Below are positions 8,974-63,941 of a stretch of DNA of 64,000 nt, piece by piece. Each line of letters opens with the position of its first letter. Position 1 is the first letter of the stretch. This DNA is from a bacterium. GTDB lineage: Bacteria; Patescibacteriota; Minisyncoccia; Phycocordibacterales; UBA5272. Position numbers and translations under genes: made by a program. The stretch is from positions 68,652 through 132,651 of the forward strand of contig JAIXVU010000008.1 in assembly GCA_027482685.1 (NCBI GenBank), in the 5' to 3' direction. The notes under the pieces are model-generated. The model made no database searches, was not told where the DNA came from, and saw nothing but the letters and a program-made list of their open reading frames with translations.

Positions 8974-9948
8974 CTACTTTGCATTCTTAAGTGATGCAGT
9001 AAGCACATCACCAAATAGCTTGATAGTTTCATCTTCATACAAAGATAGTGTATAAACAACTTTTGCTTTTGAGGCTTTCTTTAATTCTTTTACTTTCTTT
9101 TCTACTTCACTTGTATCTATCGTATCAGTCTTTGAAAGAACAACGATCTCATCTTTCGTAAGAAGCTTTTTATCATATGCACCGAGTTCGTTACGAATAG
9201 TCGTATACACTGCTCCAACATCATCATTCTCCGCAGATACAAGATGCACGAGCGCATGAGTGCGTGTAATATGTCGCAAGAACTTATGCCCGAGTCCCTT
9301 ACCGTCACTTGCGCCTTCAATAAGTCCTGGGATATCCGCAAGAACGTACCCGAAGTACGCACCCAAGTTAGGTTCAAGTGTTGTAAACGGATAATCTCCA
9401 ATCTTTGCTCCTGCTCGAGTAAGCGCGTTTAGAAGAGAAGACTTTCCAGCATTCGGTAATCCAATAACACCAACATCCGCGATGAGTTTAAGTTCAATAT
9501 CAAATGTTGCGAATTCTCCTTTCTCACCTTTTGTAAACTCTTCTGGTGTACGATTAGTGGAGGACTTAAAGTTCTCATTCCCTAGGCCGCCTTTTCCACC
9601 ACGCAAAATAAGGAAGTCTCCTTCTTCTGTATACTCTTTTGTAATATCATACTCACGATTATGCACCACTGATCCAATCGGTATCTGTAAGTAAAGATCC
9701 TTTGCGTCACTTCCATGCATACTACGCTTTTGCCCTGCCTCACCTTCATCTGCTGTCCAGTCTTTTTTATGTTTATACACTGCAAGTGCTTGGATATCAC
9801 GTATAACGCGAAAGTATATATCTCCTCCACGTCCACCATCTCCTCCTGCTGGTCCGCCATACGGAACACCCTTCTCGCGTCTCCAACGGACGACACCATC
9901 ACCACCTTTCCCTGCAGAGATATTGAGAGTTACGTGATCGATTAACAT
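8974..9948 (-). CDS. obg: GTPase Obg (short form, 324 aa, without the C-terminal OCT domain)
   Basis: Gly-rich Obg fold AGKGGDGVVRWRREKGVPYGGPAGGDGGRGGDIYF. G1 GLPNAGKSSLLNA. G3 DIPGLIEGA. Confidence 0.9.
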   Translation of the reverse strand: MLIDHVTLNISAGKGGDGVVRWRREKGVPYGGPAGGDGGRGGDIYFRVIRDIQALAVYKHKKDWTADEGEAGQKRSMHGSDAKDLYLQIPIGSVVHNREYDITKEYTEEGDFLILRGGKGGLGNENFKSSTNRTPEEFTKGEKGEFATFDIELKLIADVGVIGLPNAGKSSLLNALTRAGAKIGDYPFTTLEPNLGAYFGYVLADIPGLIEGASDGKGLGHKFLRHITRTHALVHLVSAENDDVGAVYTTIRNELGAYDKKLLTKDEIVVLSKTDTIDTSEVEKKVKELKKASKAKVVYTLSLYEDETIKLFGDVLTASLKNAK

Positions 9949-14243: not shown

Positions 14244-17200
14244 TTATGCTTTCTTGTTACGAAGACCTGTACCAGCTGGAATAAGGCGTCCAATAATAAC
14301 ATTCTCCTTCAGCCCTCGTAGCTGATCAACCTGTCCACGAGTTGATGCTGTGATGAGCACTCTGGTCGTGTTCTGGAATGATGCACTTGATAGCCATGAG
14401 TCAGTTGATAGAGCAACATCGGTGATACCAAGTACAAGATGTCTACCTTTTGCTTCTGTTTGACCAAGAGCTTTTACACGAGAGTTTTCAGCGCGGAAGG
14501 TTGACACTTCAACAACATCTGACTGAGTAAAACGTGTATCTCCTGGATTAGTTATCTTCACACGTCCAAACATTTGCTTGATGATAACTTCGACGTGCTT
14601 ACGAGAGATAGACGCACCTTGAAGTTCGTAGACTTTGTTGATTTCAGCTACAATGTACTCTTCTGCAACTTCCTTACCAGCAAAGTTGAAGAGCTCATCA
14701 ATATCTGCTGATCCATCTGTTAACATCTGACCCTTCTTAACCTTATCTCCAATCTTTACGATTGATTGACGACGGAATGGTACCGTGTACTCAACTTGCT
14801 TACCACTCTTATTACCCTTTGATCCATCATCATCTGCTAGTAGTACAATAACTTTTTCTTTCCCTTCATCACGCATACCGATTATCTCTCCACTTTCGTG
14901 AGCAATAATTGCTGGGTTCTTAGGCATACGACGCTCGAAGATTTCTTCGACACGAGGAAGACCTTGTGTAATGTCTGCTCCTGCAACACCTCCTGAGTGG
15001 AAGGTACGCATCGTAAGCTGTGTTCCTGGTTCTCCGATTGCTTGCGCTGCAACGATACCGACTGCCTCACCTAGATCTACCTTCTTGTTACGCCCCATAT
15101 CAAGACCATAACACTTCTGACAGATTCCATGTAGTGACTGACACATAAGTGGAGAAAATACATTAACCTCGACAATACCCGCTCCTTCTATTGCAAGCGC
15201 ATCGTCTTTACTGAGAAGGTGATTCTTCTTAAAGAGCACTTCGCCATTAACATTGATATCATCAGCGATAACACGTCCACGAATATTCTTAGAGATTGGC
15301 ACCTCAATACCGAGAGCATTCTCTTTACGAATAAGCTTGCTTTCTTTTGTTCCACAATCAATTTCAGTAATGATTGCATCTTGTGCCACATCCACGAGAC
15401 GTCGTGTAAGATATCCTGCTTGCGCTGTCTTAAGCGCGGTATCTGAGTTACCCTTACGAGCACCATAAGTAGTGATGAAGTACTCAAGTGGAGTTAGTCC
15501 TTCCTTGTATGATGAGATAACTGGGAAGTCCAAGTTACGTCCTGAGTTGTTAACGATAATACCCTTCATACCAGCCATCTGAATAATCTGTGCCATTGTT
15601 CCACGGGCACCGGATGTGATGAGGTCATACACTGAACCATGTTTAGCTATTGTTGCAGGAAGAGCCTTCTCGATACGTGCACGCACTCCTTGCCATACTT
15701 CAATAACTTTTTCATAACGTTCTTCTTGTGAAAGAAGACCCTCTTCATAATCACTTTCAATACGCGCAGCTTTTGACCAACCTTCAGCAACAAGTTCTTT
15801 CTTCTCTTTAGGAATGGTTACAGCGTCGATATTCCATGTTGTACCTGATACTGTCGCATACTTATACCCGAAGGCTTTTATCTTATCTATAACAGAAGGC
15901 GCAGTCTCAAGACCGTAAGTCAAGATAACTTCATCAATAATCGCTGTCATCTTTTTGATTGTTACTTCTTCATTAATATATGGGAAGTCACTTGGGAAGA
16001 CAGAGTTGAAAAGTAGCCGTCCAACGGTTGTCTCGAAACGCTCACCATTAAACTTCGCATACTTCTCCTTATCAGTTGGCATGACAGAAATCTTGGCACG
16101 GAAAGAAACAACACCGAAGTCATACGCTGTGATAGCTTCATTAGGTGCTTCAAAATATTTTCCTTCACCTTTCTCTCCATCAATCTGCTTAGTCATCCAG
16201 TACGCACCGAGCACCATATCCATACGAGGGTTAACAATAGAATCTCCTGATCCAGGCTTAAGGAGGTTACGGTTAGCTGCCATTAGTGTACGAGCTTCCT
16301 CTTGTGCTGCAACTGAAAGTGGTAAGTGTACTGCCATCTGGTCACCATCGAAGTCCGCGTTAAACGCCTGACATACAAGCGGATGAAGCTGGATAGCGTT
16401 ACCTTCGATAAGCTTCGGATTAAATGCTTGGATACCAAGGCGGTGGAGTGTAGGAGCACGGTTAAGAAGTACATATTTTCCGTCAATACATTCTTCAAGA
16501 ATTGCCCACACTTCAGGTATTCCGTCTTCAATCAATTTGTTGGCACCACGAATGTTAAACGCCAGCTCTCTTTCAAGAAGCTTAGAAATAACAAACGGCT
16601 TGAAGAGCTCAAGTGCCATATGCTTAGGTAGACCACACTCATTAAGTGAGAGCGATGGACCAACCACAATAACAGAACGTGCTGAATAATCTACACGCTT
16701 ACCGAGTAGGTTACCACGGAGAAGCCCTTGCTTACCTTTCAAGTTATCAGAGAGTGACTTGAGTTGACGCTTCTGTGATTGACTCATAACAGCATCTTGC
16801 CCATGACGTGCTGAGTTATCAATAAGCGCATCAACTGCTTCTTGCAAGATACGCTTCTCGTTACGGAGAATAACATCAGGCGCACCAATTTCCATCAACT
16901 TCTTAAGACGATTGTTACGATTAATCACTCGACGATAAAGATCGTTCACATCTGATGCTGCATAGCGTCCACCTTCAAGAGCAACCATAGGGCGAATACC
17001 TGGAGGAATAACTGGAATAACAGTCATAAACATCCACTCAGGACGAATACCTGCATTTTGGAAAGCACGCACAAGTGAGAGTCTCTTCTCAGCCTTCTCA
17101 CGCTCAAGAGCTCCAGCTTTCTCAAGTTGAACAACTATCTTTCCTTCAAGATCTTTAAGATCAATTGTCTTGAATATCTCATAGATAGCCTCTGCTCCGA

Positions 17201-17837
17201 TACCTGCTTCGAAACATGTCCCATACTTCATTGCAAAGCGGTGATAGGTAAGCTCATCGAAAATCTTCCATGGTTTGATCTCTTCTATCTCTTTCTTTGT
17301 TGCAGTGAGGAGTTCGCGGAGCTTATCCTGAGTTTTTTCATCACTTGCTGACTTTACCTTTGCCTTAAACTCACTGTCTAGATTAGCAAGTATCTCTTCC
17401 TTGGCAGCTTGGTTAACTGACTTGATAACATATCCAGCAAAGTAAATAACTTTCTCAACATCTCCAACTGGCTGAGCGAGGATAAGAGCGATACGTGATG
17501 GTACGGTACGAAGGAACCAAATATGAGCAACAGGAGACGCAAGTTCAATATGCCCCATACGTTCACGACGAACGATAGATTTTGTTACTTCTACACCACA
17601 CTTCTCACAGATGATACCCTTGTAACGAATACGCTTGTACTTTCCACAGTAACATTCGAAATCCTTTTCTGGACCGAATATTCTTTCATCAAAAAGACCG
17701 TAACGCTCGGAACGTCCTGTACGGTAGTTGATAGTCTCTGGCTTTGTAACTTCACCGTATGACCAAGAACGAACTGCTTCTGGAGATGCAATTTTAATCG
17801 CGAGGCTATCAAAATTATTTGTATCGATTGTTTTCAT
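14244..17837 (-). CDS. rpoC: DNA-directed RNA polymerase subunit beta'
   Basis: 1197 aa. Catalytic NADFDGDQMAVH. Zinc-binding CYCGKYKRIRYKGIICEKCGVEV. Confidence 0.97.
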   Translation of the reverse strand: MKTIDTNNFDSLAIKIASPEAVRSWSYGEVTKPETINYRTGRSERYGLFDERIFGPEKDFECYCGKYKRIRYKGIICEKCGVEVTKSIVRRERMGHIELASPVAHIWFLRTVPSRIALILAQPVGDVEKVIYFAGYVIKSVNQAAKEEILANLDSEFKAKVKSASDEKTQDKLRELLTATKKEIEEIKPWKIFDELTYHRFAMKYGTCFEAGIGAEAIYEIFKTIDLKDLEGKIVVQLEKAGALEREKAEKRLSLVRAFQNAGIRPEWMFMTVIPVIPPGIRPMVALEGGRYAASDVNDLYRRVINRNNRLKKLMEIGAPDVILRNEKRILQEAVDALIDNSARHGQDAVMSQSQKRQLKSLSDNLKGKQGLLRGNLLGKRVDYSARSVIVVGPSLSLNECGLPKHMALELFKPFVISKLLERELAFNIRGANKLIEDGIPEVWAILEECIDGKYVLLNRAPTLHRLGIQAFNPKLIEGNAIQLHPLVCQAFNADFDGDQMAVHLPLSVAAQEEARTLMAANRNLLKPGSGDSIVNPRMDMVLGAYWMTKQIDGEKGEGKYFEAPNEAITAYDFGVVSFRAKISVMPTDKEKYAKFNGERFETTVGRLLFNSVFPSDFPYINEEVTIKKMTAIIDEVILTYGLETAPSVIDKIKAFGYKYATVSGTTWNIDAVTIPKEKKELVAEGWSKAARIESDYEEGLLSQEERYEKVIEVWQGVRARIEKALPATIAKHGSVYDLITSGARGTMAQIIQMAGMKGIIVNNSGRNLDFPVISSYKEGLTPLEYFITTYGARKGNSDTALKTAQAGYLTRRLVDVAQDAIITEIDCGTKESKLIRKENALGIEVPISKNIRGRVIADDINVNGEVLFKKNHLLSKDDALAIEGAGIVEVNVFSPLMCQSLHGICQKCYGLDMGRNKKVDLGEAVGIVAAQAIGEPGTQLTMRTFHSGGVAGADITQGLPRVEEIFERRMPKNPAIIAHESGEIIGMRDEGKEKVIVLLADDDGSKGNKSGKQVEYTVPFRRQSIVKIGDKVKKGQMLTDGSADIDELFNFAGKEVAEEYIVAEINKVYELQGASISRKHVEVIIKQMFGRVKITNPGDTRFTQSDVVEVSTFRAENSRVKALGQTEAKGRHLVLGITDVALSTDSWLSSASFQNTTRVLITASTRGQVDQLRGLKENVIIGRLIPAGTGLRNKKA

Positions 17838-17855: not shown

Positions 17856-20800
17856 TTATAGAGACGTCTCACCTAGTAATTGTTCTGTGTATCCCTCTGG
17901 CTTAACAGGGTCTACATCAAGCGATAGTCCACGGAGTGTATTTAACATCACTGTAAACGACGCTGGTGTGTTAGGCTCTTGAACATCTTCACCTTTTATA
18001 ATGCTATCAAATGCAGCAGAGCGTCCTACGATGTCGTCTGACTTTACTGTTAGCATCTCACGTAAGATATGTGATGCGCCGTATCCTTCAAGCGCCCATA
18101 CTTCCATTTCCCCAAAGCGCTGACCTCCACCTTGAGCCTTTCCACCAAGTGGTTGCTGAGTGATAAGTGAGTATGGACCAATCGAACGCATGTGAATCTT
18201 ATCTTCAACCATGTGGTGAAGTTTCATAATATACATCACACCAACTGCAGTCTCTTGATTAAACGCTTCACCTGTTCGTCCATCATAGAGCTGAATAGTT
18301 CCTGATGCTGAATACCCTGCTTTTACAAGTTCTTCTTTTATTTCAGCATCACTTGCTCCTTGGAATGATGGAACAATAGCTTGATATCCAAGAGAATCTG
18401 CTGCAAGACCGAGGTGCATCTCGAGAATCTGTCCAAGGTTCATACGTGATGGCACACCAAGCGGTGTAAGAATGATATCTATAGGAGTCCCATCTGCTGC
18501 AAACGGCATTTCTTCTACTGGGAGGATTGTTGAGATAACACCTTTGTTACCGTGACGGCCTGCAAGCTTATCTCCAACTGAGATGTTACGCACTTGCGCA
18601 ACTTCAATATGAATACGCTTGATGATACCACTTTCAAGGTGATCCCCTCGTTCACGAGAAAATACTTTTACTCCGATGATACGTCCACGCTTACCATGAT
18701 CAAGACGAAGTGATGAGTCCTTCACATCACGCACCTTCTCACCGAAGATTGAACGAAGAAGTCTCTCTTCTGGGGTAAGTTCTGTCTCACCCTTTGGTGT
18801 AATCTTACCTACGAGAATATCTCCTGGGCGAACTTCTGCTCCGATACGGATAATACCGTCCTCATCTAAGTTCTTAAGCTTATTCTCTCCAACGTTTGGA
18901 ATATCATGTGTTGTGACTTCTGCTCCTAACTTCGTATCACGTACATTACATACGAACTCTTCGATGTGAATAGATGAAAACTTACTTTCCTTAACGAGTC
19001 TCTCTGAGAGAATGATCGCATCTTCGTAGTTCGCACCATTCCATGACATGAATGCCACACGAATGTTATGCCCAAGTGCAATCTGTCCATTATCTGATGT
19101 TGCAGCGTCCGCTAGTACTTGGCCTTTCTTTACTTTATCACCAAGTGACACAATAGGTCTCTGGTGGAAAAGGTTAAAGGCGTTTGTTCGAGCAAAGTTA
19201 ATGAGTGGGTACTCATATTCTTTTTTATCAGCCTTAAGTACTATCTTCTTAGCATCGACATACTTAATCTCTCCTGCTTCATCAGCTATAACAAGACGTC
19301 CAATATGCTTTGCAGCAACCCCTTCCATACCTGTAGCTACAAGAGGCGCTTCTGGGCACATAAGTGGAACTGCTTGCTTTTGCATGTTTGAACCCATGAG
19401 TGCACGTGATGCGTCATCGTGCTCGAGGAATGGAATCATAGAGGTTGCAACAGAGAATGCTTGGTTAGTTGCTACGTCGATGAACTCGACTTCACTCTTA
19501 GGTGCAAGTCCTGGCTGACCAACACGACGGATCTCAATTTCATCCCCTAGTAGATTTCCTTTCTCGTCATACTTATTCCCAGCATGCGCGATAATGTGAC
19601 GCTCTTCTTCAAGTGCGTTCATGTATACTATCTCTTTTGTAATCTTTCCGTCCTTTACTTTTACATATGGAGTCTCGATGATACCGAAATCATTGATACG
19701 CGCATAGTTAGAAAGACGAAGGATAAGACCGATGTTCGGACCTTCTGGGGTGTGGATAGGACATACACGACCATAGTGTGATGTGTGCACGTCACGAACT
19801 TCAAATCCAGCACGCTCACGTGTAAGACCTCCAGGACCAAGGGCAGAGAGAGTACGAAGGTGTTCAACTTCAGCGAGCAAGTTCTCTTGGTTCATGAACT
19901 GTGAGAGCTGGTTAGTAGTAAAGAACTCTTTGATACGAGCCTGTAGTGGACGCTGGTTGATGATAGCAATAGGAAGCGTGGTATCTGTATCAATAACAGA
20001 CATCTTGTCTTGGATGTTACGCTTCATCTGCATCATACCTGTACGAATCTTCTGTGCCATCATTTCACCTACATAACGAACGCGACGTGATCCAAGGTGG
20101 TCAATATCATCCTCTTCTGCGTTAGGATCATTGTTTAGTTCAACAATGTGTTTAATGATATCCACCATATCTTCCTTAGATAGTGTTCGGCGTTGTGCTT
20201 CTTTATCTTTAGGGTCAATAGACTTACCAAAACGCTTGTTGAAACGAAAACGCCCAACAGGAGAAAGGTCATAACGCTCAGGAGACACGATAGAGTCAAT
20301 GTATTCCTTTGCGTTTTCTGGAGTAGCGAGATCACCATCACGAAGTCTCTTGTAGATCTCTATATATGCATCATGAAGTGTCTTTACTTCATCACGCTCA
20401 ACTAAAGCAGAAATAATTGGTGAAGCTACTTCATGATCATTAAACGCTGCTTTTATTTGTTCATCAGTAGTGAATCCAAGCACGCGAAGAAGTGCAACGA
20501 CAGAGAACTTACGCTTCTTGTCGATACGAACATATACTCCACCGTCAGCTTCTGTCCCAAGTTCAATCCATACACCACGAGATGGAATGATTTTTGCACC
20601 GAAGTATCTTTTTCCTTTTGATTCTTCTGAGTCAAAGAATACACCGAATGATCGAGCAAGTTGTGGTACAACTACACGCTCAACACCGTTAATGATGAAT
20701 GTTCCATGAATAGTCATCAGTGGAAAATCCGCCATGAATATTTCCTGCTCTTTTGTAGTATTTAATATTTTGTTGGTGAGCTTCACACGAGCACGTAGTG

Positions 20801-21074
20801 GTGCCTCATAGGTAAGCTTGTTCTCCTTTGCGTACACTTCATCGTACTTTGGAGCTGAGAGTTCAAAAGAGATGAACTCGAGATCGAATTTCTTCTCAGA
20901 GTAATCACGAAGTGGTGAGAACTCACGGAAAATTTCTACTATGCCTTTTTCTGTAAGGTCCTTGTATGAAAGAATCTGGTTTTCAACTAAGTTAGGAATA
21001 TCAGTCAGTGGTGTACTGTACTTTGCAAACGTTTTTTGTGGGCGAGCACCGGCGGTTAGATATGTTTTTGGCAT
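17856..21074 (-). CDS. rpoB: DNA-directed RNA polymerase subunit beta. Start taken as MPKTY (ATG at 21074); the ORF extends to a GTG at 21092.
   Basis: About 1072 aa. N-terminus ...IPNLVENQILSY. Conserved beta-subunit blocks throughout. rpoB-rpoC order. Confidence 0.97.
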   Translation of the reverse strand: MPKTYLTAGARPQKTFAKYSTPLTDIPNLVENQILSYKDLTEKGIVEIFREFSPLRDYSEKKFDLEFISFELSAPKYDEVYAKENKLTYEAPLRARVKLTNKILNTTKEQEIFMADFPLMTIHGTFIINGVERVVVPQLARSFGVFFDSEESKGKRYFGAKIIPSRGVWIELGTEADGGVYVRIDKKRKFSVVALLRVLGFTTDEQIKAAFNDHEVASPIISALVERDEVKTLHDAYIEIYKRLRDGDLATPENAKEYIDSIVSPERYDLSPVGRFRFNKRFGKSIDPKDKEAQRRTLSKEDMVDIIKHIVELNNDPNAEEDDIDHLGSRRVRYVGEMMAQKIRTGMMQMKRNIQDKMSVIDTDTTLPIAIINQRPLQARIKEFFTTNQLSQFMNQENLLAEVEHLRTLSALGPGGLTRERAGFEVRDVHTSHYGRVCPIHTPEGPNIGLILRLSNYARINDFGIIETPYVKVKDGKITKEIVYMNALEEERHIIAHAGNKYDEKGNLLGDEIEIRRVGQPGLAPKSEVEFIDVATNQAFSVATSMIPFLEHDDASRALMGSNMQKQAVPLMCPEAPLVATGMEGVAAKHIGRLVIADEAGEIKYVDAKKIVLKADKKEYEYPLINFARTNAFNLFHQRPIVSLGDKVKKGQVLADAATSDNGQIALGHNIRVAFMSWNGANYEDAIILSERLVKESKFSSIHIEEFVCNVRDTKLGAEVTTHDIPNVGENKLKNLDEDGIIRIGAEVRPGDILVGKITPKGETELTPEERLLRSIFGEKVRDVKDSSLRLDHGKRGRIIGVKVFSRERGDHLESGIIKRIHIEVAQVRNISVGDKLAGRHGNKGVISTILPVEEMPFAADGTPIDIILTPLGVPSRMNLGQILEMHLGLAADSLGYQAIVPSFQGASDAEIKEELVKAGYSASGTIQLYDGRTGEAFNQETAVGVMYIMKLHHMVEDKIHMRSIGPYSLITQQPLGGKAQGGGQRFGEMEVWALEGYGASHILREMLTVKSDDIVGRSAAFDSIIKGEDVQEPNTPASFTVMLNTLRGLSLDVDPVKPEGYTEQLLGETSL

Positions 21075-21336
21075 AAAGACAGATGTTGCCACACGGCTCT
21101 CTATATCCGTGTGACGTTACGTTACAATAAACTTTTATAAAAATTTTCTCTCATTCCCCAGTTGGTTCGAATAACCCAAAGTATTCGATACGTATGCAAA
21201 CCTTTCTCTCTATTTTTCGTAACTTAATCGTGGGTCAATAGTTGGATTATAATACCAGTAAATGAAGAAAATAGCAAATTCTATTAAAGACAATTATTAT
21301 TTTAATACGATAATATTTTATATGGGGTTTTGTAGG

Positions 21337-21526
21337 ACGATACGACAGATCTTTCGTATTAAATTTTTAAGTTTTTTCTTTTTAACCCCGCCCTTTCAAA
21401 GCACGGTACTTTTTTGCTAAAAAGTACCTCTGTTCCGCGCCGTCGCGCTTCCACGCGGCTTTAAAATGGCGGGGTTGGGTGTGGTGGATACAAAAGAGAA
21501 AGCCCGCCGAAGCGGGCTTTCTCTTA
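21337..21526 (-). ncRNA. conserved ~185-nt structured element, copy 1, upstream of rpoB. It begins with a bidirectional terminator palindrome. Its paralog is at 29929-30114.
   Basis: About 90% identical to the second copy. Three helices show compensatory changes between copies. A G-U wobble is tolerated only on the minus-strand transcript. Confidence 0.5.
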
Positions 21527-21531
21527 TCAAG

Positions 21532-22218
21532 CTAATCAATTTTATATATTGCAGTACGAATCTTTGCGTTTTCCTTACCCTCTCTATTCTCTGGTTTAAA
21601 TATGGAAGCAGTAATTGTTTTAGTGCCTTCATCAAAAGTGAAATCATAAGTGCTTCCAAATCCTCCGAGCTTGACGTATGTTTCTGTTCTTGGGTTAAGC
21701 TCTGACTTTGTAATTGTAACTATATCAGTTGAGCCTTTTTTATAATAAAGTATAAGAGTGTCATATACGACTACAATATAATTATCTGTTTCAACAAAAT
21801 TACCAAATAAAGTCATTCCAAGAGGGTTTTTGTCTAGCCGGTTAAGAGTGTTTACATCATATATACTTATATCAAGCCCAGCCTTGCCATTTAAGACAGC
21901 AAATGCGACAGTTTTATCGTCTCTATATTTTATTAGAATTGTTGACTTTGCTTGTGATGCATTATTATTATAGCTTTCAAGTATTGGTGTGTATACATCC
22001 GAATACTTTTCCGTATATCGATCAATGACTGCTTTATCTGCTACTGAAAGTTTATCGTATGGATACTCTTGAGTGGGTTGAACCGGAGCAGTAGTAGTGG
22101 TAGTAGCTGACTGAGTAGTATCATCCGTTATAATCGTCGTTTCTTTACTTTGGTAGAAAAAGGCTGCCAAACCAAAAAGTACAAACAAAATGATTATAAT
22201 TATATACGTTTTTTTCAT
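21532..22218 (-). CDS. hypothetical membrane-anchored/secreted protein (228 aa)
   Basis: N-terminal TM helix IIIIILFVLFGLAAFFY, then a Thr-rich linker. Confidence 0.5.
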   Translation of the reverse strand: MKKTYIIIIILFVLFGLAAFFYQSKETTIITDDTTQSATTTTTAPVQPTQEYPYDKLSVADKAVIDRYTEKYSDVYTPILESYNNNASQAKSTILIKYRDDKTVAFAVLNGKAGLDISIYDVNTLNRLDKNPLGMTLFGNFVETDNYIVVVYDTLILYYKKGSTDIVTITKSELNPRTETYVKLGGFGSTYDFTFDEGTKTITASIFKPENREGKENAKIRTAIYKID

Positions 22219-28357: not shown

Positions 28358-29698
28358 TTATCTTTTTGGGACGAACGTAAGAGCATGGCCAAGTTTAGTC
28401 CCACGTCCTGTTCGCCCGATACGGTGAATATATGTCTCGTAGTTATTTGGAATATCGTAATTAACAACAAGAGATATATCGTTGATATCTAGTCCGCGCG
28501 CTGCAACATCAGTCGCAATCACAACTTGCACCTTACCAGAAGCGAGTGCCTTCACAGCACGCTCACGTTCACGATTATGCATATCACCATGTAGTGCGAG
28601 AGCCTTGAACCCACGTTTGGTAAGCTCATCAGTAAGTCCGTCAACATGACGCTTCATCTCACGGAAGATAAGAACCTTAGAGTATTCAGGCTTATTCAAA
28701 ATATCATGGAGAGCATCCACCTTTTCTGCATCAGTGGTTACACGTATTACATCCTGCATAACAGATGATGCGGTATCGCGTGACTTAATAGATACAGTCA
28801 CAGGGTCAACGAGGAAATCTGTACAGAGTCTCTTAATCTCTGGACTAAATGTTGCAGAGAAGAAAAGCCCTTGCTTGTCCTTTGGCATAGCACCTAAGAT
28901 TGAACGCATATCATCAATGAATCCCATGTCTAGCATACGGTCTGCTTCATCAAGTACGATACTATCGAAGAAACTCATGTTGATCTTCCTACGTTCGATA
29001 AGATCCTTCACACGTCCTGGTGTTCCGATAACGGCGTTAACGCCTAGCTCAAGCTCTTTTATCTGTCGCATGATTGGTGAACCACCAACACAAGATACAG
29101 AGAAGAGCTTCATCCCGCGTGTGAACGCTACGAACTCTGCCTCAACCTGCATAGCAAGTTCACGAGTTGGAGTAAGTACCATCATCTTGTGATCTTTATC
29201 AGCTACGAGCTTGTTGATGAGTGGAATTAAAAATGCTGCTGTCTTCCCTGTTCCGGTAGATGCAATACCTATCACATCTTTTCCTGTGAGTACTTGTGGG
29301 ATTGCTTGGTCTTGTATTGGAGATGGATTGATGAGACCTTTTGCAGTTAAGTTCGCAGAGAGTAGCTCATGAATGTTGAAATCCGTGAACTTGTGTGTTG
29401 GAGTGTAGTTGTTGGTTTCTGCGATACCAACCTCTTTGTTAATGAAAAGCTTCTCGTCGATATAGTCCTTCTTAAATGATCGCTTAGCGTTAAATGGGCG
29501 AGGTGATGAAGCGCCACGAGAAAATCCACCACGTGAACCTCCGCGTGGTGCATATCCTCCACGTGAGCCTCCGTCACGTGATGATGAACCGCGTGGTGAA
29601 TAGCCTCCTTCGCGAGGAGATGATGAGTAAGAACGAGGTGAACGTGTGCGAGAATCGGTACGTGAGTCAGAAGACCCACCAGTTGTTATGGTATACAT
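28358..29698 (-). CDS. DEAD-box ATP-dependent RNA helicase with an N-terminal RG/RS-rich disordered extension. The ORF extends to 29734.
   Basis: Q-motif through motif VI: GKDVIGIASTGTGKT, DEAD (VLDEADRML), SAT, HRIGRTGR. Confidence 0.9.
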   Translation of the reverse strand: MYTITTGGSSDSRTDSRTRSPRSYSSSPREGGYSPRGSSSRDGGSRGGYAPRGGSRGGFSRGASSPRPFNAKRSFKKDYIDEKLFINKEVGIAETNNYTPTHKFTDFNIHELLSANLTAKGLINPSPIQDQAIPQVLTGKDVIGIASTGTGKTAAFLIPLINKLVADKDHKMMVLTPTRELAMQVEAEFVAFTRGMKLFSVSCVGGSPIMRQIKELELGVNAVIGTPGRVKDLIERRKINMSFFDSIVLDEADRMLDMGFIDDMRSILGAMPKDKQGLFFSATFSPEIKRLCTDFLVDPVTVSIKSRDTASSVMQDVIRVTTDAEKVDALHDILNKPEYSKVLIFREMKRHVDGLTDELTKRGFKALALHGDMHNRERERAVKALASGKVQVVIATDVAARGLDINDISLVVNYDIPNNYETYIHRIGRTGRGTKLGHALTFVPKR

Positions 29699-29928
29699 AT
29701 GTATTTGTAGGCAAGAACACGCGAAATAACGCAATGATTCTTATTTAGTTAATTTCATTATTTGCGCTTACCTTCAGTAAAAAGAGAAGGGTTGTATGGT
29801 TAACCACAACGCGTCAAATCAGAAAAACCTTTTGCCTGACTACACAGTGATATCCATAAAGGAAATAATACAACTATTATAGCAAACTATAGACTTTTTG
29901 TCAAACAAACTTTAATTACCATAGTGGC

Positions 29929-30114
29929 ACGATACGTAAAATATTTTGTATTAAAATTTTTAAGTTTTTTCTATTACCCTCCACCCTTTCAAAGCACAGT
30001 ACTTTTTTGCTAAAAAGTACCTCTGTTCCGCGCCGTCGCGCTTCCACGCGGCTTTGAAATGGTGGAGTTGGTTTGGTTACTACAAATGAAAAAGCCCACC
30101 GAGGTGGCTTTTGA
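29929..30114 (-). ncRNA. conserved ~185-nt structured element, copy 2, upstream of the DEAD-box helicase
   Basis: See copy 1. Includes terminator palindrome AAAAGCCCACC-gag-GTGGGCTTTT. Confidence 0.5.
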
Positions 30115-30145: not shown

Positions 30146-30892
30146 TTATTTTGTAAGGATTATAGTGCAGTCATGTCCGTAGGGATCTTTGAGGAATGAG
30201 TAATTTGTCCAGCCATTTTGGAGGGCGAGGTGTTCGATAGTTTCGCGTTGGGTGATGTCGAATTCAAGGTAGAGAGTACCGCTAGACTTTAAAAATTCTT
30301 TTGCGCGACTAAGGACCTGTTTATGGTAATAGTAACCGTCTTCTTTATCGAAAAATGAGAGTGGATCTTCGGCTCCTAATTCCTTCATTACCTCATCCTG
30401 CATCTGTGGTGGTACATATGGTGGAACTGCAAAGATATAATCATACGTACCAGAAGCACCTGTCCATGTGTCCCCTGTTACGACTCGTGTGCGGGTTTTC
30501 TTGATATTATTTTTGGTGATTGAAATATTGATCTGCTTGGCAAGCTTCGGGTCAAACTCTATCATGTCGACTGTAGACTCTGGGATATTTTTAAGTATCG
30601 CAAGCCCGATGTTACCAGACCCTGAGAATAGGTCTAATACTCTTGTCGTAAACGCAGGTGGTGAGTTATGAATGTGTTCTAGTGCCTGCGCTACCCAGTG
30701 AGCGGTCTCAGGACGTGGGATCATAGGACGAAGTGACAGGTCGATTTTTGCACCGCAAAAATCGACTGTACCCATCAGATATTCAAAAGCCTCCCCTTCT
30801 GACATGGCCTTCACATCATTAAGAAACTCCACAGTCTCTATGCCTTTATACTTTTCTAGTCGTAATCGTGCGACTTTATCTTCGAACTTCAT
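30146..30892 (-). CDS. prmC: release-factor glutamine N5-methyltransferase PrmC/HemK-like; the catalytic NPPY is replaced by VPPY
   Basis: EYLMGTVDFCGAKIDLSLRPMIPRPETAHWV. SAM motif LDLFSGSGNIGLA. FAVPPYVP. Confidence 0.75.
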   Translation of the reverse strand: MKFEDKVARLRLEKYKGIETVEFLNDVKAMSEGEAFEYLMGTVDFCGAKIDLSLRPMIPRPETAHWVAQALEHIHNSPPAFTTRVLDLFSGSGNIGLAILKNIPESTVDMIEFDPKLAKQINISITKNNIKKTRTRVVTGDTWTGASGTYDYIFAVPPYVPPQMQDEVMKELGAEDPLSFFDKEDGYYYHKQVLSRAKEFLKSSGTLYLEFDITQRETIEHLALQNGWTNYSFLKDPYGHDCTIILTK

Positions 30893-37756: not shown

Positions 37757-37893
37757 CGAGGGGTGGGAATGCCTGCAAGTTCCATGTCATCGACGCTCTA
37801 TGGACTTGCAGGCTGTTGCTCGCAATTCAGGCCTCTACCCTCACAACGCTCCGCCGGTTGTTCCTACCACAAAAGTAAACACTGACTTTCTCA

Positions 37894-37951
37894 CCGACAC
37901 AAAATACAAAAAGTTAAGTCAGATGACTTAACTTTTTGTATTTTGTGTCGG
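37894..37951. repeat. 27-bp perfect inverted repeat with a 4-nt loop, whose right arm overlaps the 3' acceptor end of the minus-strand tRNA-Met
   Basis: CCGACACAAAATACAAAAAGTTAAGTC-agat-GACTTAACTTTTTGTATTTTGTGTCGG. Confidence 0.8.
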
Positions 37952-38019
37952 CGGGTGGGAACGATCCACCGACCTTGGGCTTATGAGTCCCACGCTCTAA
38001 CCAACTGAGCTACGCCGAC
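37946..38019 (-). tRNA. tRNA with a CAT anticodon (elongator Met or Ile2-lysidine type); unusual T-loop ATCGTTC
   Basis: Reverse complement GTCGGCGTAGCTCAGTTGGTTAGAGCGTGGGACTCATAAGCCCAAGGTCGGTGGATCGTTCCCACCCGCCGAC. Perfect 7-bp acceptor stem. Loop CTCATAA. Confidence 0.7.
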
Positions 38020-62678: not shown

Positions 62679-62845
62679 AGCAATACTTATAATACTACCG
62701 TATCTTAAGCATAATGATAATCAAAAAAGACAGCTACTATACTAAGAAGTATATATAGAGAAGACAAGATTCTCTTATATATCACTCATCCACCGCTCAA
62801 CAAAAATGGCCACCTGGGTTCTAGGGTGGCGCATTTTTGTACAAG

Positions 62846-62932
62846 CGGAGAAAGTGGGATTCGAACCCACGGGGCTAATAAAAGCCCGACGGTTTAGTAA
62901 ACCGTTGATTTAAACCACTCATCCATTTCTCC
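62846..62932 (-). tRNA. type-II tRNA, Ser-like (G73 discriminator, long variable arm), with anticodon loop TTACTAA, i.e. apparent anticodon ACT
   Basis: Reverse complement GGAGAAATGGATGAGTGGTTTAAATCAACGGTTTACTAAACCGTCGGGCTTTTATTAGCCCCGTGGGTTCGAATCCCACTTTCTCCG. Confidence 0.6.
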
Positions 62933-63733: not shown

Positions 63734-63814
63734 AAAATAGACTAGGCACTTACAACAACACGTCCCAAGAGACGATGATAATTTCACCGCAAAATCTTTC
63801 TCGTTGCCGCAAAA

Positions 63815-63850
63815 TAAAAAAGAGTCCGCATATGCGGACTCTTTTTTATT
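63815..63850 (+). terminator. rho-independent terminator
   Basis: GAGTCCGCA-t-ATGCGGACTC flanked by A- and T-runs. Confidence 0.75.
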
Positions 63851-63853
63851 TTG

Positions 63854-63941
63854 CGGAGACGATGAGATTCGAACTCATGAAGGTATTACTACCTTGCCTC
63901 GTTAGCAGTGAGGTGCCTTCGACCAGCTCAGCCACGTCTCC
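63854..63941 (-). tRNA. tRNA-Ser(GCT), type II
   Basis: Reverse complement GGAGACGTGGCTGAGCTGGTCGAAGGCACCTCACTGCTAACGAGGCAAGGTAGTAATACCTTCATGAGTTCGAATCTCATCGTCTCCG. Confidence 0.8.

Follow-up and report, generated by a model that had tools for sequence, protein, structure and literature searches.

The window studied here is a 64,000-nucleotide (nt) stretch of contig JAIXVU010000008.1 (assembly GCA_027482685.1, positions 68,652 to 132,651) from a Paceibacterota bacterium (Parcubacteria, Nomurabacteria-like), whose best rpoB relatives are 85–93% identical. Its minus strand carries rpoC (14244–17837), rpoB (17856–21092), an open reading frame (ORF) of 228 amino acids (aa; 21532–22218), a DEAD-box helicase gene (28358–29698) and prmC (30146–30892). 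The gene order prmC-helicase-peroxiredoxin ... rpoB-rpoC is kept in relatives. Two copies of a structured intergenic element were found, one ahead of rpoB (copy 1, 21337–21526) and one ahead of the helicase gene (copy 2, 29929–30114), and the minus-strand order was the same at both sites: the terminator hairpin of the upstream gene, the element, then the sigma-70 promoter of the downstream gene. Comparative sequence evidence places these copies in a hitherto undescribed family of dispersed structured intergenic elements, ~95–125 bases long and present in many copies in Paceibacterota (Patescibacteria, or candidate phyla radiation, CPR).

A pattern search, a repeat finder and a covariance model agreed on the two copies. 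No third copy was found in the window, either by the repeat finder or in a covariance scan with filters off, in which the copies scored 105 and 93 bits and the runner-up 21 bits. The 70-nt core pattern had two matches in the window and none in 100 shuffles. On the minus strand, the whole duplicated unit of copy 1 (21337–21526; copy alignment and blastn) comprises the terminator of the upstream 228-aa ORF, the element, a purine tract and a small palindrome. Within it, the match to the covariance model, R1 (21369–21489; 105 bits, E 7.5e-23, R1 E-values being rough owing to a shortened model calibration), takes in an A/C-rich 5' flank, the P1-P2-P3 core and a 3' AAAAAGAAAAAAC tract. In the folded core (21384–21476; folds and family structure), helix P1 (AACCCCGCC...GGCGGGGUU plus an inner helix) closes a three-way junction. 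The P3 hairpin, read from sequence and fold, is GGUACUUUUU-AGCA-AAAAAGUACC (21405–21428), and the P2 arm (21433–21458; sequence compared with the family alignment) has a CGCG/CGCG stem, an ACGG/GACG loop and flanking purine-purine (GAA/GGA) pairs, of which the window copies have three instead of two. The P2 region of both copies (21433–21458 and 30023–30048) can alternatively pair as CCGCG/CGCGG, which is the RNAfold minimum-energy structure and competes in the window copies with the family G·A-loop fold. Copy 2, the whole minus-strand unit of which (29929–30114) lies upstream of the helicase promoter in what is taken as the ancestral position (orthologous copies occur there in ~20 related genomes), has its model match at 29962–30081 (93 bits, E 7e-20) and its folded core, with outer P1 CUCCACC/GGUGGAG, at 29977–30069 (folds and copy alignment).

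Two further features recognised by sequence accompany each copy. An intrinsic-terminator-like hairpin (GAGAAAGCCCGC CGAA GCGGGCTTTCTC; 21496–21523), with T-rich tails on both strands, ends the gene upstream of copy 1; it lies in the duplicated unit and outside the family core. Its equivalent at copy 2 is the terminator-like hairpin after prmC (AAAAGCCCACCGAGGTGGCTTTT, with a bulged C; 30090–30113). The palindrome ATACGAAAGATCTGTCGTAT lies between copy 1 and the promoter (21340–21359), and its counterpart at copy 2 is ATACGTAAAATATTTTGTAT (plus strand as written; 29932–29951).

Both copies folded better than shuffled sequences on either strand (z −5.2/−6.7 for copy 1; −3.3/−3.2 for copy 2). The folded cores (21384–21476 versus 29977–30069) were 91.4% identical (85/93) and differed at eight sites, four of which, in the outer helix, amount to two pair replacements with full compensation (C-G to U-A; G-C to A-U). 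One further difference turns a U·G wobble of the inner P1 into C-G, another replaces the G-C pair that starts P3 at its base with G·U, and two (AA to CC, plus strand) unpair the two outermost pairs of copy 2. Both wobble changes would be A·C mismatches if the plus strand folded and are tolerable on the minus strand only. Most of what an initial annotation, made from the sequence alone, had reported here was borne out, namely two related copies at these positions, compensated outer-helix substitutions and wobble pairing on the minus strand only. Its identity of ‘about 90%’ applies to the folded cores but not to the whole units (84.4% over 192 aligned columns). Likewise, the compensated change it described in the terminator helix was found for one pair, but the copy-2 arm reads GTGGC rather than GTGGGC, with a 1-nt deletion that leaves a bulge. 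Two weak covariance-model matches on the minus strand (63792–63869, 21 bits, E 0.014; 37878–37965, 19 bits, E 0.05) overlap or abut tRNA genes and are probably noise from generic hairpins.

To place the window copies in a wider family, they were compared with 83 related loci. Using blastn, only short flank matches were returned; the orthologues were too diverged. Inspection revealed the same architecture, with different helix sequences, upstream of the helicase promoter in loci L002/L003, L004, L012, L016, L025, L037 and L039. RNAalifold, a check suggested with the initial annotation, gave a consensus structure with 31 pairs, of which 26 showed double changes, for an eight-sequence alignment of diverged orthologues, and R1 was built from that alignment. 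R1 had 31 matches in the window plus the 83 helicase- or rpoB-anchored loci and, among the matches listed, 94 in 80 metagenome loci and 41 in 43 further loci (40 metagenome loci of the same pattern scan, two viral contigs and L094 searched again). This covariance-model search, also proposed at the outset, thus raised the total to at least 166 copies in ~200 Paceibacterota loci, counted as sequences and not as evolutionary events. The metagenome loci were retrieved by a degenerate pattern limited to the P2-P3 core, with P1 no part of it, and this exact core-pattern retrieval biases the sample towards intact copies. The GC content of matches ranged from 0.29 to 0.61, and one high-GC contig was Paceibacterota/Kaiserbacteria-like by LigA. 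Phage carriage was rejected, as the pattern matches on the two viral contigs were not confirmed by R1.

The family was also placed outside known RNA families, as the initial annotation had supposed. Scanned against Rfam 15 at the gathering threshold, the window returned six tRNAs only. No match was found among 4227 Rfam models even at E ≤ 10, bar terminator-like or microRNA-hairpin chance matches for copy 1 and two relatives; these were far sub-threshold and differed per member, and those of copy 1 stemmed solely from its terminator hairpin. In the papers searched, the core sequence was not found, and a keyword search found no description of such a repeat in Patescibacteria.

Each unit is predicted to fold on one strand into a long, variable P1 hairpin capped by a conserved three-way junction. 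P1 consists of ~17 bp with small internal loops, is often extended to 25–35 bp and is 91–97% paired, though its sequence is essentially random between copies (mean identity 0.35). The junction is tight (J1/2 of 0–1 nt; J2/3 of 1–3 nt containing GA; J3/1 GU). P2 has a covarying basal stem of 3–5 bp, a bulged G, tandem G·A/A·G, a 3–4-bp stem and a GACG/GGCG or GGGUA loop, with CACAG/GCAG variants in ~10 copies (5/31 in alignment A3, others in A4 and A5). In P3, an AGCA tetraloop closes an A/U-rich stem whose sequence is conserved. High-GC members carry an extra basal helix with a second tandem-G·A motif (GCGAGG...CCGAGC), whereas in the Nomurabacteria-type subfamily, window included, the 5' flank is devoid of G (TTGTAT-TTTAACAAACCCC) and a purine tract (AAAAAAGAAAAGAAA) lies on the 3' side. 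Positions assigned to pairs were paired in 93.1% (A3) and 95.1% (A4) of cells, versus ~60% in column shuffles and 40–55% with slid partners; as both alignments were fitted to R1, these percentages lean towards the model. Changes on both sides were seen for 31/31 pairs in A3 and 30/31 in A4. This covariation signal is as strong as in established RNA families.

The question of which strand folds was addressed using non-Watson-Crick pairs. Across three alignments, G·U outnumbered A·C on the modelled strand (the minus strand in the window) by 162:49 (p = 2.6e-15), with 92% of counted pair cells Watson-Crick when gaps were set aside. This upholds, family-wide, the earlier proposal of a conserved secondary structure on the rpoB/helicase strand. 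The bias is no artefact of strand choice, because strongly asymmetric unpaired motifs fix the orientation of each match, and it was the same in sense, antisense, convergent and divergent copies (34:8 in those antisense to both neighbours). Symmetric DNA-level explanations (cruciform, template-switch homogenisation) are therefore excluded by the bias itself, and mutation bias tied to transcription or replication by its constancy across orientations. The pairing statistics indicate that only the modelled strand folds, as a single-stranded nucleic acid; the bias fits RNA and single-stranded DNA (ssDNA) alike.

With ORFs called by a simple script, ~85% of copies were intergenic. Their neighbours were housekeeping genes (NusG, L11, RuvB, TrxB, Adk, S1, RNase J, SmpB, HisRS and others), and 165 Pfam families were represented among 149 neighbour proteins, none of them in more than four; no regulon or association with particular genes emerged. 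Single contigs held two to four copies (L102, L181, L006, L023), often mutually inverted, with three in 2 kb in L102. In L181 (2265–5058), four copies lie in 2.8 kb, including one head-to-head pair, and the genes they separate are those of ribosomal protein S1, a protein with a cold-shock domain and an RNase J-like metallo-beta-lactamase, plus an unknown ORF. Of the 94 metagenome matches listed, ~15 were at contig ends. Extra copies, with the index copy excluded, occurred at ~1 per 39 kb, which suggests roughly 15–25 copies per genome, a rough estimate from biased loci.

Between co-directional genes, antisense copies outnumbered sense copies (45 versus 23, p = 0.01), and they lay a median of 12 nt past the preceding stop codon, several with just 4–10 nt per side. 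A position within 40 nt of the next start codon was found for 24/45 antisense versus 5/23 sense copies (p = 0.019). Sense copies were typically found between a canonical terminator and a sigma-70 promoter, as are both window copies. Judged from this placement, the folding strand would rarely be present in a sense mRNA, being either antisense or confined to a terminator–promoter gap. Orientation set by replication direction was considered and is unlikely, inverted pairs occurring within 1–3 kb of co-directional genes. In several relatives, the structured elements are bordered by another short repeat, AAATACAGACACTGGATTCC-loop-GGAATGACAAATAC, to which they are unrelated (L006 ~9415–9480 and ~9615–9680; L012 ~9330–9380 and ~9505–9570; L005 ~9640–9690; L032 ~1605–1650); it was not seen in the window.

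We further examined the promoters at the two window sites. Downstream of copy 1, a promoter scan identified the minus-strand rpoB promoter (TTGCTA-17-TATTAT / TGGTATTATAAT; 21246–21277, −10 box at ~21254–21246); this promoter, including TGGTATAAT, and the ensuing leader are conserved in L001 and L002, both of which are without the element there. The helicase promoter (TTGACA-17-TATAAT with TG, 12/12; 29876–29904, minus strand), identified by the scan and from relatives, lies downstream of copy 2 and is conserved in many relatives, element present or not, with a strongly conserved leader after it. The distance from the end of the element to the −35 box is ~60 nt for copy 1 (21337 versus 21277) and ~25 nt for copy 2 (29929 versus 29904). 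Because the promoters lie downstream of the elements, both elements are placed outside the predicted 5' untranslated regions of rpoB and the helicase gene, and would be leaders of neither.

The sequences between these promoters and their genes showed conservation of their own. The helicase leader (29699–29875, minus strand, from the promoter to the ATG at 29698) is strongly conserved across relatives, with the consensus ATATTATTTCCTTTATGGATATC..TGTGTAGTCAGG...TTTGACGCGTTGTGG.TAACCATA...(variable hairpin)...GAGCGCAAATAAT, and had no Rfam match at E ≤ 1. The true candidate for a cis-regulatory RNA of the DEAD-box helicase is this leader rather than the repeat. At rpoB, after the −10 box (TGGTATAAT-type) comes a leader segment, CC.CCACTATTGACC...GATT.AGT.A.GA (~21200–21254, minus strand), that is conserved in L001 and L002 and is a possible rpoBC leader motif in a lineage where rplJL does not precede rpoB. 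A 20-nt palindrome (ATACGAAAGATCTGTCGTAT; ACGAAAT.T.TGTCGTATCGAAT in relatives) separates the repeat from the helicase promoter in the window, L002 (~1262–1290), L004 and L024, and may be the operator for a dimeric regulator.

The two sites appear to differ in their history. The helicase-upstream site is occupied in ~20 genomes whose helicases are 59–88% identical to that of the window, and P1 at this site drifts gradually via compensated changes (e.g. AACTTTTCCATGAGAA... in L002, L005 and L032). Sequence comparison at this site indicates that its copies have had a long vertical residence under apparent selection for pairing. Most relatives are without a copy before rpoB; L039 has one. P1 identity between the rpoB and helicase copies was 0.75 in the window and 0.79 in L039, and a pair in L102 reached 0.94, whereas between contigs the mean was 0.35 and the 99th percentile 0.68. 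The likeness of the rpoB and helicase copies, whose sites are 8.6 kb apart, probably reflects a recent duplication or gene conversion. The tract homogenised in the window takes in the terminator and the downstream palindrome, and since this palindrome is native to the helicase locus in relatives (L002, L004, L024), the helicase copy is the ancestral one and the source.

Weighing these observations, our preference, a tentative one, is for a long-lived, strand-specific commensal repeat of the REPIN/BIME type, recognised by a putative trans factor. We infer this function because the folded strand is rarely in sense mRNA, the element is multi-copy and found in both orientations, copies can be tightly wedged between genes and recent duplicates occasionally occur. 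In such a scheme, new copies would arise through duplication, and the conserved junction would be the recognition module for a putative trans-acting protein, which might act on the single-stranded (RNA or ssDNA) form. Insertions putting the folded strand into mRNA would be purged by selection, and the element would be no leader-type regulator of rpoB or the helicase. REP/REPIN/BIME elements, mobilised by RAYT HUH transposases, are likewise multi-copy, extragenic and near gene 3' ends in both orientations, with a single-stranded hairpin fold, long vertical persistence and no coding capacity. The family presented here is an extragenic multi-copy hairpin repeat, but it lacks a conserved GTAG-type stem. 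REP units measure 20–40 nt, vary at the tip while conserving the stem (5' GTAG) and occur in hundreds of copies, whereas here the stem is free to vary, the ~65-nt three-way-junction tip is conserved over a GC range of 0.29–0.61 and copies number in the tens. No RAYT turned up in our search, which covered loci rather than whole genomes.

Several observations weigh against a commensal repeat. Inspection by eye showed neither terminal inverted repeats nor target-site duplications, nor any conserved motif at the ends, and no transposase, reverse transcriptase or integrase occurred among the 149 neighbour proteins. The duplication in the window carries flanking host sequence (terminator, palindrome) and so was not a precise excision-insertion. 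The orthologues at the helicase locus keep their pairing by compensatory change, in species with the helicase divergence given above, which points to selection at the locus and is unpredicted by a purely selfish element. Most same-genome copies are as diverged as random pairs, indicating no bursts. Finally, the REPIN pattern of conserved stem and variable tip is here reversed.

The main rival to a commensal repeat, which we regard as somewhat unlikely, is an RNA boundary element selected by the host, whether a fail-safe terminator, an insulator or a processing site. In this model, read-through past the upstream terminator would yield a forward RNA that folds and, by itself or through a protein bound to it, halts, cuts or stabilises the transcript, so that the element would shield the strong rpoBC and helicase promoters and leaders from upstream read-through. 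The location of both window copies, and of most sense copies elsewhere, exactly between an intrinsic terminator and the next sigma-70 promoter is in keeping with such a role, as is the retention of the helicase-upstream copy with compensatory evolution in ~20 species. It is also consistent with the depletion of sense copies from tight operon spacers, as expected of a polar forward RNA, with the G·U bias, which shows that the forward strand folds, and with the copy before rpoB in a second genome, L039. However, the commonest class of copy is antisense to both neighbours, often within operon-like strings (the 45 versus 23 above), a setting in which such a role lacks an obvious substrate. The core is followed not by a U-tract but by a purine tract (AAAAAGAAAA) or unrelated sequence, unlike an intrinsic terminator; the true terminators are the separate hairpins at 21496–21523 and 30090–30113. 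In addition, many close relatives are without the element at the same loci and have no obvious replacement, and a site past a canonical terminator is where the element would be least transcribed.

A further reading, which we consider improbable, is a new RNA class with the three-way junction as its catalytic or recognition centre, either a self-cleaving ribozyme or a processing/mobilisation signal of a Paceibacterota RNA- or ssDNA-borne element. This would explain why the folding strand is kept from sense mRNAs while the core is conserved across the lineage. Orphan Rfam motifs (e.g. Weinberg-type) and small self-cleaving ribozymes similarly combine a conserved junction and loops with covarying stems, and are intergenic, multi-copy and oriented without relation to their neighbours. 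Sense copies are depleted inside operons, and there was no match to the known Rfam ribozyme classes.

Equally hard to sustain, and if anything a little more doubtful, is a family of independently transcribed small RNAs (sRNAs), trans-acting or protein-sequestering, of which the window copies would be paralogous minus-strand genes. The family shows strong covariation, conserved loops and tandem G·A motifs, as stable ribonucleoprotein RNAs typically do; its 5' and 3' ends pair with each other; like that of sRNA genes, its orientation does not depend on neighbours; and the Nomurabacteria-type subfamily has its conserved TTGTAT-TTTAACAAACCCC 5' flank. Yet sigma-70 promoters aimed into the element were not enriched (13% at ≥9/12 matches versus 15–20% in controls), and the promoter scan found none upstream of either window copy. 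At many copies, the spacing to the ORF on either side is 4–30 nt, too short for a promoter, and no terminator lies 3' of the element. The small RNA gene put forward in the initial annotation is consequently not supported, no dedicated sigma-70 promoter having been found. The recurrent TTGTAT motif was tried as the element's own sigma-70 promoter and rejected, with no enrichment and no −35 box. A plus-strand sRNA gene ending at the bidirectional terminator was likewise discarded, given that the G·U bias favours the minus strand and that the terminator of relatives, L002 among them, has no U-tract on the other strand.

The model first suggested for this locus, a cis-regulatory leader or attenuator common to the rpoBC and helicase units, would account for a conserved structure on the same strand as, and upstream of, both genes. 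With the elements outside both 5' untranslated regions, it therefore fails and is now very improbable: both copies are upstream of −35/−10 boxes that relatives retain whether they carry the element or not, the leader truly conserved at the helicase gene begins past its promoter, and two-thirds of copies between co-directional genes are antisense. The associated link to RNA-metabolism transcription units is incidental, as family members are flanked, in both orientations, by genes of 165 unrelated families. Just as remote is a plain DNA palindrome, a cruciform or protein site in which intrastrand template switching maintains the complementarity of the arms, since, although template switching can homogenise long inverted repeats and 92% of counted pair cells are Watson-Crick, both it and cruciforms are strand-symmetric whereas the G·U excess over A·C tracks element and not gene orientation, and conserved unpaired motifs (G-GA/GA loop, AGCA loop) and a three-way junction are unexpected of a simple palindrome.

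The family was compared with other known systems. ERIC/IRU, Correia (NEMIS) and BOX/RUP elements are also dispersed, intergenic, ~100–150 nt long and form long hairpins, and they can affect mRNA processing or stability once transcribed. They differ in being conserved in sequence throughout, in having terminal inverted repeats and often target-site duplications, no such ends being seen here, and in occurring in other phyla. A miniature inverted-repeat transposable element (dependent on a DDE transposase) was rejected; P1 ends are wholly different between copies, and inspection, which was not exhaustive, showed no flanking direct repeats. Integron attC sites share conservation of structure rather than sequence, strand-specific folding, a length of 60–140 nt and a position just past ORF stop codons. 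They were dismissed on the basis of missing R''/R' core sites (RYYYAAC/GTTRRRY), housekeeping neighbours and no cassettes, mixed orientations and a branched-junction tip. An ENE-like triple helix with an A-tract was also set aside, its defining motifs being absent.

The tandem sheared G·A beside a Watson-Crick stem, found in P2 and, in high-GC members, also at the P1 base (GCGAGG/CCGAGC), is shared with K-turn and other tandem-G·A RNAs. Compared with a canonical K-turn, the family has the tandem GA/GA beside a 3–4-bp stem and a covarying basal stem of 3–5 bp, and its bulge is a single G and not 3 nt. As far as the account in PMC12045711 goes, TIGR-Tas units have box C and D motifs flanking two 8–12-nt spacers, form tandem arrays beside a Tas (Nop-domain) gene and are also present in CPR bacteria, like the family here (PMC12045711). 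A box C/D (TIGR) unit was nevertheless rejected: our alignments contain no box C (RUGAUGA) or box D (CUGA) and no unpaired 8–12-nt spacers, and the copies are dispersed singletons with no tandem arrays and no Tas/Nop-domain neighbour gene.

Two features of the window unconnected with the repeat were also recorded. The DEAD-box helicase (446 aa) has a ~100-residue N-terminal extension before the helicase core (family matches begin near residue 102), scores under the cut-offs of the CshA, DbpA and RhlE models, and has a first-listed ORF start (TTG, 458 aa) upstream of the conserved ATG. ARAGORN called a tRNA-Ser with anticodon ACT at 62845–62932, ~1 kb from tRNA-Ser(GCT) at 63853–63941. A serine tRNA with an unmodified A34 is unusual, and this one may be either a wrong call or an isoacceptor variant.

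The genomes of Patescibacteria (CPR) are tiny and contain little non-coding DNA, and, to our knowledge, almost no non-coding RNAs or repeat families have been described in them. An element of ~100 nt, at an estimated 15–25 copies per genome, would make up a noticeable share of their intergenic space. The R1 model should help annotators, in that it explains recurrent contig breaks and ‘empty’ intergenic regions in these metagenome-assembled genomes, and the analysis corrects a tempting misreading, as the element is apparently no shared regulator of rpoBC and the helicase. For RNA biology, the family provides a defined new motif in which ribozyme activity, protein binding or a terminator/insulator role may be sought. 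Its conservation spans 35%-GC Nomurabacteria-like to 55%-GC Kaiserbacteria-like lineages and, together with the covariation, implies an unrecognised trans-acting partner or activity in these bacteria.

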